The notes beneath the pieces are model-generated. The model worked only from the letters and a program-made list of their open reading frames with translations, was not told the origin of the DNA and did no database searches. The translations under genes were made by a program, and so were the position numbers. Below, piece by piece: positions 17,241-17,562 of a stretch of DNA of 56,522 nucleotides (position 1 is its first letter; every line of letters begins with the position of its first letter). The DNA is from Escherichia phage PDP46: the sequence record PQ783785; one strand, given 5' to 3'.

Positions 17241-17326
17241 AGCTAATACACGTTCTGTACTAACTGCACATATTTCTACATAGGTTTCATGATTTTGAGT
17301 TGCAGCTAATACAGAACGTGTATTAG
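17241..17326. repeat. Operator-like repeats: AGCTAATACA twice, with 13-bp inverted repeat TACACGTTCTGTA / TACAGAACGTGTA
   Basis: Perfect 13-bp inverted repeat ~50 bp apart; motif related to the GTGTATTAGCT sites at the window ends. Confidence 0.6.
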
Positions 17327-17340
17327 TAGATCATAGATTC

Positions 17341-17445
17341 ATAGATTTCGTCATGTTTATTTTTTAACCAACCTCTCTCTATCTTATTCTTTTTATTATC
17401 TTTTTATAATAAACATAATAAACATAGATAAATAGAAGAGTAGTA
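17341..17445. repeat. AT-rich block, copy A
   Basis: CATAGATTTCGTCATGTTTATTTTTTAACCAACCTCTCTCTATCTTATTCTTTTTATTATCTTTTTATA... nearly identical to 56417-56522 and onward into 1-25; contains ACATAGA short repeats. Confidence 0.7.
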
Positions 17446-17515
17446 TAAGTAGTAAAAGTTGCTGCAATCAGGAGAGGTTTAAAAGGTATAGGGAGTCGCA
17501 TACTTCCCATGAATC

Positions 17516-17562
17516 TATACGTAAAATAATTCTTGACGGATTACATCGACACAACTACCCTG
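17516..17562 (+). promoter_or_regulatory. Conserved early promoter copy 8, rightward (-35 TTGACG ~17533, -10 TACCCT)
   Basis: AAAATAATTCTTGACGGATTACAT on the + strand, divergent from copy 7. Confidence 0.6.

Follow-up and report, generated by a model that had tools for sequence, protein, structure and literature searches.

Two related regions of the PDP46 genome and the genes beside them

The window, by which we mean the whole stretch of DNA analysed (56,522 nt), is the circularly permuted genome of Escherichia phage PDP46, a 9NA-like siphophage (Nonanavirus/Sashavirus) belonging to a group of virulent phages. Our analysis revealed a non-coding region A (17238-17518) before the head genes and a region B (56239-56522 plus 1-200) upstream of terS. 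The two are paralogous across about 280 bp, each being composed of palindromic sites, an AT-rich block and a promoter-like module, and each directly precedes a rightward late operon, that of the head genes at A and that of terS at B. Together they amount to about 600 bp, or about 1% of the genome. A sequence-only reading had placed one copy before terS and the other before the head genes; this was borne out, and both copies were found at fixed syntenic positions in every relative. The same architecture occupies the same two places in E. coli, Salmonella and Klebsiella members of the group, and it was also seen in the B regions of four more metagenomic relatives. An IMG/VR search for further relatives gave only 6 loci, nearly all of PDP46 type. 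In the literature covered on 9NA-like phages, whose scope left out Zeng et al. 2019, nothing was found on the A and B elements, nor any characterisation of the origin, the late promoters or most of the small genes.

Region A is flanked by divergent copies of an early promoter, as had been proposed. The leftward sigma-70 copy (17194..17233, minus strand) has its −35 element TTGACG at 17222-17217, its −10 element TATCTT at 17199-17194, and an AT-rich tract upstream. The sequence AATTCTTGACGGATTACA, of which it is one copy, occurs 13 times against 0.07 expected by chance; the promoter scan also called this copy, and it is predicted to drive the leftward small-gene cluster running from 17150 to 14272. 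The rightward early-type copy (17522..17561, plus strand; −35 TTGACG at 17533-17538) forms with it a perfect 24-nt inverted repeat (17210-17233 versus 17522-17545). Only the E. coli clade has this rightward copy and the gene that follows, which were inserted between A and the head genes; the promoter copy is absent from 9NA, SP069, Sasha, Solent and KP13-27. The inserted gene (17592..17960, plus strand; 122 aa, with an open reading frame and a start codon) contains a 21-bp tandem repeat at 17768-17840, has no Pfam family, and is annotated in AVIO78A, Bas82 and PJ16 only. The first conserved gene of the head operon is that for an XkdF-like putative prohead protease (17957..18367, plus strand; Pfam PF14550, E = 9e-8), a homologue of 9NA gp37 in synteny with 9NA gp37-gp40. 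At B, the terS gene (276..911, plus strand) was assigned to the terminase small subunit by PHROG 51 (E = 8e-11) and is annotated as TerS in Sasha. On the other side of B lies a lone leftward gene (55390..56187, minus strand) for a 265-aa protein of PHROG 25538, function unknown, which we call gpX. No known RNA family or tRNA was found across the window.

Palindromic sites and the candidate binding protein gpX

In region A, AGCTAATACA occurs at 17241 and again at 17304, and TACACGTTCTGTA at 17247 is answered by its reverse complement TACAGAACGTGTA at 17310, which confirms the perfect 13-bp inverted repeat noticed earlier. The repeat is longer than first noted, namely 26 nt with 92% complementarity (17243-17268 versus 17301-17326), and the two 13-mers are parts of two copies of a quasi-palindromic site of 19-31 bp. 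Site A1 (17238..17268) is a 31-bp quasi-palindrome, TACAGCTAATACA-CGTTC-TGTACTAACTGCA, with a 19-bp core starting at 17244; site A2 (17301..17331) reads TGCAGCTAATACA-GAACG-TGTATTAGTAGAT. Their centres are 63 bp apart, or 6 helical turns, and the direct-repeat family D1 has the same spacing of 63. In five close relatives the first site is TACAGAA(C/T)GTGTA, relative to which the central 5 bp of A1 are inverted in PDP46. The pair is therefore a direct repeat in those phages, and PDP46 alone has its two 13-mers in perfect inverted orientation. Counterparts of A1 with a different sequence type were found at the same position in 9NA, SP069 and KP13-27.

Sites were scored with the pattern TARTRCA-N5-TGYAYTA, which has 14 scored positions, and a good match was taken as at least 12 of 14. 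All 11 such matches in the genome lie inside A (two, both scoring 14) or B (nine); shuffled sequences gave about three anywhere in the genome. Six of the B sites form a left array (56239..56404) between the gpX start codon and the AT-rich block, with starts at 56239, 56278, 56309, 56333, 56365 and 56386, and weaker sites besides. The right part of B (17..200, upstream of terS) holds S9 (17-35), a paralogue of the promoter-like module (about 45-95), S10 (153-171) and S11 (182-200), and the three sites score 14, 14 and 13. Next to the variable inner box there is a conserved outer box, TTAKCTGNAAC, whose strict matches are confined to A and B; one of them, TTAGCTGCAAC, lies at 17299 on the minus strand. 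Where terminators have been called on these palindromes, the calls are probably spurious. Both this larger site family behind the 13-bp repeat and the candidate binding protein encoded next to it had been missed in the sequence-only reading.

The gpX protein was found only in 9NA-like phages. It is composed of a variable N-terminal four-helix, HTH-like domain, a conserved central domain and a linker of EAPVARV tandem repeats. Sequence searches of Pfam, NCBIfam and PDB gave no relatives, and the remote-homology search as a whole (Pfam, NCBIfam, PHROGs, PDB, a HMMER scan of 1.8 billion representatives, and Foldseek) gave a weak HTH resemblance at most. The AF2 model of the N-domain has a pLDDT of about 90, and its Foldseek matches to the N-terminal domain of TP901-1 CI and to the HTH of DdrO are weak (E about 4-6, rmsd 2.3-3.8 Å, target TM-score 0.46-0.58).

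The site sequence type differs among lineages, and the A type equals the B type within PDP46, 9NA and KP13-27, and partly within SP069. In all nine B regions read, which represent about seven types, the site type beside gpX tracked the type of the gpX N-domain. These regions are those of PDP46, Sasha, BDX09P1, 9NA, SP069 and KP13-27, together with three metagenomic loci out of the four L027-L030; the locus L028 is of the KP13-27 type. Between types, gpX is 31-41% identical in the N-domain and 50-68% in the central domain. BDX09P1 represents a clean module swap, in which the left array of B and the gpX N-domain have been replaced together while the terS-proximal sites are unchanged. This pattern makes gpX the candidate site-binding protein. 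The correspondence with A is looser, since BDX09P1 combines its new N-domain and left array with A sites of PDP46 type, and Sasha and Solent have gpX and B of PDP46 type but A sites of SP069 type. These mosaics break the match between A sites and gpX, so that either A is dispensable or something else reads it through the outer box. Two other proteins were considered as readers of the inner box and rejected as too conserved: a ParB-like protein, whose HTH is identical in PDP46 and 9NA, and the primase-helicase, whose C-terminus is 76-80% identical between these two phages though their inner-box types differ. Both are still candidates for reading the conserved motifs.

The position of B directly upstream of terS, with sites on either side of a block of about 110 bp, also raises the possibility that the arrays are TerS binding sites flanking a cleavage region in the style of SPP1 pacL-pacC-pacR, B being pac and A a non-cleaved or secondary paralogue. 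Packaging in 9NA-like phages is indeed pac-directed and headful (PMC4153490), the GenBank numbering of 9NA, Sasha and PDP46 begins inside the B block, and the TerS N-terminus, 78-81% conserved between clades, could read the outer box. We nevertheless consider a packaging role quite improbable. The variable inner box co-varies with gpX and not with TerS; the first 80 residues of TerS are identical in PDP46 and Sasha, whose A sites differ; and in BDX09P1 it was the left array that changed, not the terS-proximal sites. Further, A has no adjacent terminase gene, and 9NA has a single pac fragment (PMC4153490). This indicates that A cannot be a pac site and that the function common to A and B is not packaging initiation.

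The AT-rich block and the promoter-like module

The AT-rich block of A (17340..17447) switches from a T-rich to an A-rich top strand near 17408. Its counterpart in B runs from 56418 to 56522 and on into 1-4 across the circular junction. Pairwise alignment gave 101 matches in 107 aligned columns, with 3 gap columns (94% identity), and a local score of 169, where 500 shuffles averaged 19 and reached at most 33; the claim of a near-identical second block thus holds, far above the shuffled background. With 6 mismatches permitted, the window still contains exactly two occurrences of the block core TCTCTATCTTATTCTTTTTATTATC, and in the most conserved part of the block (17376-17408) all but 3 of 33 columns are invariant among 10 phages. 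Among the 100-bp windows of the genome, the two blocks rank first and second for lowest duplex stability, with ΔG values of −103.6 for A and −104.6 for B against a genome mean of −134.8 (sd 7.1), that is, more than 4 sd below the mean. The block is therefore a candidate DNA-unwinding element, as judged from computed stability.

The short ACATAGA repeats previously described in the block could be upheld in part: this motif occurs only once in copy A (17422), but repeats of the form YATAGAWAR with a 9-bp period are present and are clearer in copy B (56483, 56492, 56501 and 1). No support was obtained for a hairpin or cruciform, because the single-stranded fold of the block (−10.5 kcal/mol, z = −1.22) is no better than that of shuffles, and its internal 26-nt arms are only 73% complementary. 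Open reading frames called inside the block are probably spurious. Among these is a minus-strand frame at 17379-17510 (43 aa, annotated in Bas82), which is found in the E. coli clade only and is absent in the Salmonella phages; DNA of the E. coli clade is at least 92% identical there anyway.

A perfect 10-bp inverted repeat, ATAGATTCAT (17333) and ATGAATCTAT (17509), does bracket block A, as reported before, and together with the 94% identity of the two copies in the PDP46 lineage it would fit a MITE-like mobile element or a recent duplication with no function. However, a perfect repeat of this length arose in about 40% of Markov simulations of the AT-rich stretch, and it is not conserved in the Salmonella phages 9NA, SP069, Sasha and Solent. 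A search for the block in host and other phage genomes showed exactly two copies, whose syntenic positions are constant among phages infecting three host genera, with no match to A or B in 5,426 complete E. coli genomes; among phage records outside the 9NA-like group, the sole match was a 48-bp stretch on the promoter copy. Conversion of the B block in the lineage of Sasha and the E. coli phages accounts for the high identity of the blocks, which is a lineage-specific homogenisation; the B block of 9NA, SP069 and the Klebsiella phages is shorter and diverged. The core sequence and the overall length of A are also under clear constraint. The suggested MITE-like or host-derived element is therefore rejected: region A is not a mobile element, and an origin of this kind, or by functionless duplication, is very improbable.

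To the right of the block lies the promoter-like module, which we call module 2 (17470..17518, plus strand; AGGAGAGGTTTAAAAGGTATAGGGAGTCGCATACTTCCCATGAATCTAT). Eleven A and B regions from across the family share this conserved element (consensus GGGGTTnTAAAG-TATAGGGAAATAGTATGAAAnCTATGAT), and it contains −10-like TATGAT/TATGAA elements at a fixed distance. The promoter scan made no rightward sigma-70 call in 17240-17527 or in 1-275, which includes module 2 of B, and the sole rightward call in B (56355-56384) falls within the left site array. The best reading of module 2, TTTAAA-N15/16-CATACT/TATGAA, is non-canonical, and by its sequence module 2 does not qualify as a canonical sigma-70 promoter. 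Nor could a general late-promoter element be recognised, given that the block, the sites and module 2 are all missing upstream of terL, the portal gene and the unit at 12148. Two other motifs were discarded as late-gene motifs: TGTACAGAAC, whose frequency is at chance level, and ACCCGTGGT, which is over-represented, yet mostly as coding sequence (CGT GGT codons).

Across clades, the length of region A is constant to about 1.5 bp. In 9 phages 252-255 bp lie between the leftward −35 element and module 2, indels there compensating for one another, and the lone variant, PJ16, has 11 bp more, which corresponds to one helical turn. This suggests face-of-helix coupling, and it counts in favour of an early/late transcription switch, in which gpX would be a transcription factor acting on arrays that separate a leftward promoter, an early one at A and that of gpX itself at B, from the rightward module 2. 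Module 2 would be the non-canonical late promoter of the terS and the head-tail-lysis operons, and the curved AT block of fixed length would bring bound gpX to RNA polymerase, as with p4 of phi29. Such a switch would fit the location of A and B immediately upstream of late operons, the conservation of module 2 with its −10-like elements, and the lack of a canonical sigma-70 promoter for the terS and head operons, as expected for activator-dependent late promoters. It would also fit the resemblance of the gpX N-domain to HTH repressor domains of the XRE type (TP901-1 CI, DdrO), the abutment of A1 on the upstream element of the leftward early promoter, and the array adjoining gpX, which would give autoregulation.

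Other features speak against it. Both A sites precede module 2 by over 160 bp, with the 108-bp block in between (164 bp from the A2 centre to TAAAAG); the left array of B is likewise distant, and S9 to S11 are beside or downstream of module 2. The nine to eleven sites at B far exceed a typical operator. The sites, the block and module 2 are missing from the short upstream regions of no fewer than three further rightward late units (terL at 5380, portal at 8822, and 12148-14282), which are set apart by terminators and leftward clusters; this indicates that the element is not a general late-promoter device. Sasha and Solent are viable with non-cognate A sites and without the inserted sigma-70 promoter, which argues against gpX as an essential activator at A. 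Members of the E. coli clade also carry an inserted early-type promoter and gene that separate A from the head genes. A transcription switch is the main rival to the origin reading set out below, and somewhat less probable than it.

A proposed two-site replication origin and comparison with known systems

Taken together, A is one of two related, family-wide conserved control regions, and most likely a replication origin or an early/late switch. Shared late-gene control and a duplicated origin had both been suggested from the sequence; after testing, they remain the two leading explanations, which sequence alone cannot separate. Our leading reading, which we hold tentatively and at somewhat less than an even chance, is that A and B may be two cis-acting halves of an iteron-type origin with an unwinding element, similar to oriL/oriR of SPP1. 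The steps would be that gpX binds the sites, the block unwinds and replication starts at A and B. A phage-specific HTH protein, most likely gpX, would bind the quasi-palindromic sites, and the conserved outer box would perhaps be read by a conserved partner such as the P4-family primase-helicase. A nucleoprotein complex of fixed geometry would thus form beside the AT block of about 108 bp, the most easily melted DNA of the genome; flanking divergent transcription would supply negative supercoiling, the block would open and the phage replisome would be loaded. As B has 9-11 sites and adjoins the gene of the binder, we propose that it may be both the primary origin and the auto-operator of gpX, while A with its two sites may be a secondary origin or a bound roadblock.

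Repeated sites confined to the element and an adjacent AT-rich candidate unwinding element, the latter by computed duplex-stability minima, are both present, as an origin would demand. The co-variation of the A and B site types, the link to the gpX N-domain, the fixed geometry and the need of the replisome for an origin likewise lend the origin reading support. PDP46 encodes its own replisome, with a polymerase and a P4-family primase-helicase (TIGR01613, 186.5 bits against a cutoff of 108.7), and neither a recognisable initiator nor a further iteron or AT-rich locus was found in its genome. The cumulative GC-skew minimum near 17 kb coincides with the position of region A, a signal confounded by gene orientation. 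Against an origin stand the lack of detectable initiator homology in gpX and the XRE-type look of its HTH, which is typical of transcription regulators. The host-factor search counts against it too, as it showed no DnaA boxes, IHF consensus or GATC cluster, with one GATC within the region A elements. The block core is kept in exact sequence and not just in composition, which suggests a sequence-specific ligand over a plain unwinding element, and the position upstream of late operons and module 2 fit transcriptional control at least as naturally. The mosaic phages in which A sites and gpX do not match (Sasha, Solent and BDX09P1) count against it as well.

The two functions might also be joined. 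A and B could then form a two-site nucleoprotein switch with swappable specificity, in which replication initiation at the block would be coupled to the firing of the module-2 promoters of the packaging and head operons; this we consider unlikely. An ORFan two-part reader would build the same complex of fixed geometry at A and at B, the variable gpX HTH recognising the inner box and the outer box being left to a conserved domain or partner. If so, the 9NA-like phages would fall into "immunity-like" specificity groups that swap the HTH domain and the array as a cassette (cf. BDX09P1).

The search for the origin and the late control of these phages can now be confined to two regions, of about 600 bp in all, and to the ORFan protein gpX. 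Natural specificity variants exist in PDP46, BDX09P1, 9NA, SP069, the Klebsiella phages and two metagenomic types. In practical terms, this bears on better annotation and on the rational engineering of biocontrol phages of E. coli, Salmonella and Klebsiella.

Among known systems, the phi29 switch has p4 sites at about −80 in a region of about 220 bp between the divergent early A2b/A2c and late A3 promoters. Region A of PDP46 resembles it: it is AT-rich, its geometry is fixed, it separates divergent early and late units, and it has inverted-repeat sites for a candidate phage regulator. In PDP46, however, over 160 bp separate the sites from the candidate late promoter, there are up to 11 sites in A and B, and the element is duplicated and present at only two of at least five late units.

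In P4, two separated cis regions (ori and crr) with the same repeats are required. PDP46 encodes a primase-helicase of the same family as P4 alpha (TIGR01613). However, the type I iteron TGTTCACC occurs 4 times in the window, at chance level, and not at all in A or B, so that an ori/crr system with clustered iterons was rejected; the conservation of the primase-helicase C-terminus between PDP46 and 9NA means that this protein could read conserved parts only. SaPI origins have two sets of repeats that flank an AT-rich core, and B resembles them with its left array, block and right sites.

In lambda, the ori is a single copy located within the O gene, and in the lambdoid O proteins a fast-evolving N-terminal DNA-binding domain co-varies with the iterons while the remainder is conserved. 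PDP46 likewise has several quasi-palindromic sites of about 19 bp adjoining an AT-rich region, and the gpX N-domain varies with the site sequence while the rest is conserved. Unlike lambda, PDP46 has two regions, with B outside the gpX gene; gpX has no match to the O protein families in Pfam, and no analogue of P, the DnaB loader, was identified.

The system closest to our leading reading is that of SPP1, with oriL/oriR and gp38 (G38P). SPP1 has two distant origin regions of similar organisation, with repeats and an AT-rich unwinding element; one is found at the initiator gene, and its counterpart accompanies moron genes in a segment of the late region that interrupts the virion-assembly genes (PMC6316719). 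From SPP1 gene numbering, we infer that this late-region segment lies between gene 7 and the scaffold gene. There are differences: gpX has no sequence or fold relation to replisome-organiser proteins and its role is putative, B of PDP46 is beside the gpX gene and not within it, and the 9NA-like replisome is phage-encoded (polymerase and P4-type primase-helicase) instead of host-derived. Both, however, are virulent pac-type siphoviruses. Region B of PDP46 is at the gene of the candidate binding protein and A is in the late region, where it follows an SPP1-gp7-like gene and a leftward moron cluster and precedes the protease, scaffold and capsid genes. Should PDP46 share the two-origin layout of SPP1, a bipartite origin, with one part at the initiator gene and the other separating the gp7-like gene from the scaffold gene, would represent an old and recurring design of pac-type siphoviruses of both Gram-positive and Gram-negative hosts.

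Anatomy of the two paralogous regions

Region A (17238-17518), which lies before the head genes, has a paralogue, region B, upstream of terS (56239-56522 plus 1-200, across the circular junction). We compared both regions in 9NA, SP069, Sasha and Klebsiella phage KP13-27, and B alone in BDX09P1 and four metagenomic relatives. The paralogy extends beyond the AT block, and the order of the parts is constant across these phages. A leftward transcription unit comes first (an early promoter at A, the lone leftward gene gpX at B, 55390-56187), followed by quasi-palindromic sites, an AT block that starts with CATAGAT and ends in YATAGAWAR repeats of 9-bp period, and a conserved promoter-like module 2 (consensus GGGGTTnTAAAG-TATAGGGAAATAGTATGAAAnCTATGAT; 17470-17518 on the plus strand in A, about 45-95 in B). 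Last comes the start of a rightward late operon, with its leader and opening gene: terS at B, and at A an XkdF-like protease gene with scaffold-like and capsid genes behind it. Members of the E. coli clade carry two insertions between region A and the protease gene, namely an early-type promoter (17522-17561) and a small gene (17592-17960); Salmonella and Klebsiella phages have neither. The inserted gene, specific to that clade, contains a 21-bp tandem repeat (17768-17840, 3.5 copies, VEPVTTA units); its counterpart in AVIO78A, Bas82 and PJ16 is shorter (348 bp).

Positions 17150-17650 are 93-96% identical to the 9NA-group E. coli phages Sashavirus 536P12, AVIO78A and KarinMuster/Bas82, and about 72% identical to the Salmonella phages 9NA, SP069, Sasha, Sergei and Solent. 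In 9NA, the counterpart of region A is the 400-bp gap that separates the leftward gp36 from gp37, which points rightward and is the first of the head genes. The window end coincides exactly with the end of the Sasha record, so the window holds an entire, circularly permuted genome, opened in the non-coding stretch before terS (276-911). For the first conserved head gene (17957-18367) the match is to PF14550, the XkdF family of putative prohead proteases; its Bas82 homologue is labelled 'DNA methyltransferase' via PHROG 1530, likely a misannotation.

The sequence-only reading had reported AGCTAATACA twice and a perfect 13-bp inverted repeat. The former is indeed present at 17241 and 17304. The 13-mer was also found at 17247 with its complement at 17310, but this inverted orientation is peculiar to the present phage. 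In five close relatives the first site, A1 (17238-17268), reads TACAGAA(C/T)GTGTA and is oriented like the second, A2 (17301-17331); the central 5 bp of A1 (17251-17255) are CGTTC here and GAACG or GAATG in those relatives. This difference is a flip of the central spacer of the quasi-palindrome, as expected from a template switch, and it gave rise to the perfect inverted repeat. The 13-bp repeat forms the centre of a longer, 19-bp motif, TARTRCA-N5-TGYAYTA, which extends to a 31-bp palindrome, TRCAGCTAATRCA-N5-TGYATTAGCTGYA. Matches at 12 or more of the 14 specified positions number 11 in the genome, against about 3 in shuffled genomes, and all fall in A (two, with starts at 17244 and 17307 and 63 bp from centre to centre) or B (nine: six on the gpX side of the block and three on its terS side).

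The outer part of the sites, TTAKCTGNAAC, is conserved family-wide, while the inner part is lineage-specific: TGCAC-GTT-GTGCA in this window, AACAC-N3-GTGTT in 9NA, ACAnaTCTGGTA in SP069 and Klebsiella phages, TAATCCTRTCATAG in the left array of BDX09P1, and AACCAAAA-N-GTTATATG in one metagenomic phage. The A and B types agree in the window, 9NA and KP13-27, and partly in SP069; A and B therefore co-evolve or exchange sequence. The Sasha record labels the palindromic site at 152-172 'terminator', which is probably an annotation artefact.

Near-identical duplication of the AT block was borne out: the 108 bp at 17340-17447 match 56418-56522 plus 1-4 at 101 of 107 aligned positions (local score 169; at most 33 in 500 shuffles). 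ACATAGA, described as a short repeat, occurs only once in the region A copy. The near-identity is lineage-specific. The B block is shorter and diverged in 9NA, SP069 and Klebsiella phages, and of A type in the Sasha/E. coli lineage, which suggests conversion. Taken in 100-bp windows, the genome has its two lowest stabilities in these two blocks, each more than 4 sd under the mean. No significant hairpin fold was found in the AT block, whose top strand passes at about 17408 from 77% pyrimidine to 68% purine. Between 17376 and 17408, 30 of 33 columns are invariant in ten phages, with flanks about 70% identical.

Region A is a fixed-geometry element. In nine phages, which come from three host genera, 252-255 bp separate the leftward −35 from the TAAAAG of module 2, despite several mutually cancelling indels; in PJ16 it is 265 bp, with an 11-bp duplication, or one helical turn, within the block. 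That duplication is the sole length change in region A among the ten phages. No known RNA family or tRNA was found at region A. A hydrophobic ORF of 43-47 aa (17379-17510, minus strand), annotated in Bas82 as Bas82_0032, lies wholly inside the AT block and module 2. It is not conserved outside the E. coli clade, Salmonella phages included; region A probably holds no gene, and this ORF is probably an annotation artefact.

A MITE-like element had also been proposed, on the basis of a 10-bp inverted repeat, ATAGATTCAT/ATGAATCTAT, bracketing the block. The repeat exists, but about 40% of simulated AT-rich sequences of equal length contain one like it by chance, and Salmonella phages do not conserve it. 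The element has only two copies, both syntenic, and none in 5,426 E. coli genomes; outside the 9NA group only a 48-bp promoter match was found. The MITE interpretation was therefore dropped. As for packaging, B alone could overlap pac.

gpX as the candidate reader of the sites

gpX (minus strand) is an ORFan restricted to the 9NA-like group (PHROG 25538, function unknown), with no relative in Pfam, NCBIfam or PDB. A search of 1.8 billion representatives returned ten hits at E <= 0.001, seven of them at <= 1e-10. Its N-terminal domain (residues 1-57) was modelled by AlphaFold as four helices with pLDDT of about 90, and the best fold matches, which are statistically weak, are XRE-type HTH domains. 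This domain is the fastest-evolving part of gpX (31-41% identity between types vs 50-68% for the central domain), and the adjacent array type follows its type in every B region examined. The clearest instance is Sashavirus BDX09P1 (57800-58371 and 1-30). Its gpX is nearly the same as that of the window except in the N-terminal domain, where the two visibly differ; the left array, next to gpX, is replaced by the TAATCCTRTCATAG type, while the AT block, the sites close to terS and those of region A all remain window-type. This is a clean cassette exchange of the N-domain and its adjacent array.

gpX is the likely reader of the sites. TerS, the ParB-like protein and the P4-family primase-helicase vary too little for any of them to read the variable inner box, but they could recognise the conserved outer box or motifs of the block. 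The match between A and gpX is broken in two mosaics: BDX09P1, and Sasha/Solent, where gpX and B are window-type but A is SP069-type. A is therefore either accessory or read through its conserved parts. Such natural specificity swaps make the system well suited to experimental testing.

The gpX gene also contains a perfect 21-bp tandem repeat (55515-55632, 5.6 copies) encoding an EAPVARV linker. Its copy number varies among relatives, with more units in one metagenomic homologue, and the Sasha record annotates a 282-bp 'direct tandem repeat region' there. Two other coding arrays were seen: a CAG-rich one of 9/12/30-bp period inside a leftward gene (4627-4809), and a Gly/Ala-rich one of 8.7 copies of a 30-bp unit (41599-41852).

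Promoters and late transcription units

The 9NA-group phages are virulent, pac-type siphoviruses whose rightward virion genes are broken up by leftward small-gene clusters. Most copies of a sigma-70 promoter family head such clusters. Thirteen sites match AATTCTTGACGGATTACA, vs 0.07 expected by chance; they are near-identical, of strong sigma-70 type, with an AT-rich upstream tract (TAAAATAATTCTTGACGGATTACA). Ten are on the minus strand (1466, 3573, 5291, 8727, 10950, 12092, 17210, 25536, 44405 and 44468) and three on the plus strand (17528, 49777 and 52004). The divergent copies reported to flank region A belong to this family and form a perfect 24-nt inverted repeat. The region A element itself does not qualify as a canonical sigma-70 promoter.

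A and B might be early/late transcription switch regions, in which gpX would act as the regulator and module 2 would serve as a non-canonical late promoter. This is the main rival account, somewhat less probable than the origin reading given below. Both regions lie directly upstream of two late operons, module 2 is conserved, the predicted fold of the gpX N-domain is XRE-like, site A1 abuts the early promoter, and the helical-turn arithmetic of the region A spacing fits as well. However, the region A sites are more than 160 bp from module 2, the sites at B are numerous, Sasha-type mosaics are viable, and other late units have no such element. None of its parts occurs upstream of the terL, portal and 12148-14282 units, so a general late promoter was rejected. 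These units are set apart by terminator-like hairpins and leftward clusters and have short upstream regions, the gaps ahead of terL, portal and 12148 being only 38-77 bp. A strong terminator hairpin follows the terL unit (7456-7475) and a bidirectional terminator-like one the portal gene (10184-10205), which implies that rightward late transcription is divided among several units.

ACCCGTGGT and its one-mismatch variants occur 38 times in the whole window, vs 12.8 expected, mostly in coding sequence (CGT GGT codons). Three copies are intergenic: those at 226 and 5336 stand just ahead of terS and terL, and the one at 56214 (minus strand) just ahead of gpX. The same 12-mer, ACCCGTGGTTAA, precedes the head operon in Salmonella and Klebsiella phages.

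A putative origin system and its precedent in SPP1

We tentatively favour the reading that A and B are the two cis sites of an origin system of the iteron type. Outside these two loci, which adjoin the most meltable DNA of the genome, there are no binding-site matches; a type-specific candidate binder, with a variable DNA-binding domain and a conserved remainder, is encoded beside one of them; and the phage encodes its own replisome but has no recognisable initiator or other iteron/AT-rich locus. Sequence comparison, on which all functional statements here are based, shows the anatomy, conservation, co-variation and stability of the regions directly; binding, unwinding and initiation there are inferences. 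The origin and switch models are compatible and not mutually exclusive. On present evidence, A and B would be classed as control regions, either origin-like with iterons and AT-rich DNA or of the operator-array kind, that have a cognate HTH protein. We found no description of these elements in the accessible literature, and the detailed 9NA-group paper (Zeng et al. 2019) may mention them.

The closest precedent for the two-site layout is SPP1. Judging by gene numbering, the SPP1 segment carrying the second site lies between gene 7 and the scaffold gene, and region A matches this position, being preceded by the gp7-like gene (9NA gp33) with its leftward morons. The second site of SPP1 has been proposed to stall the fork and so switch replication to concatemer synthesis. 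By analogy, region A may have a comparable accessory role. An SPP1-like accessory role for A would account for the viability of mosaics with non-cognate A sites.
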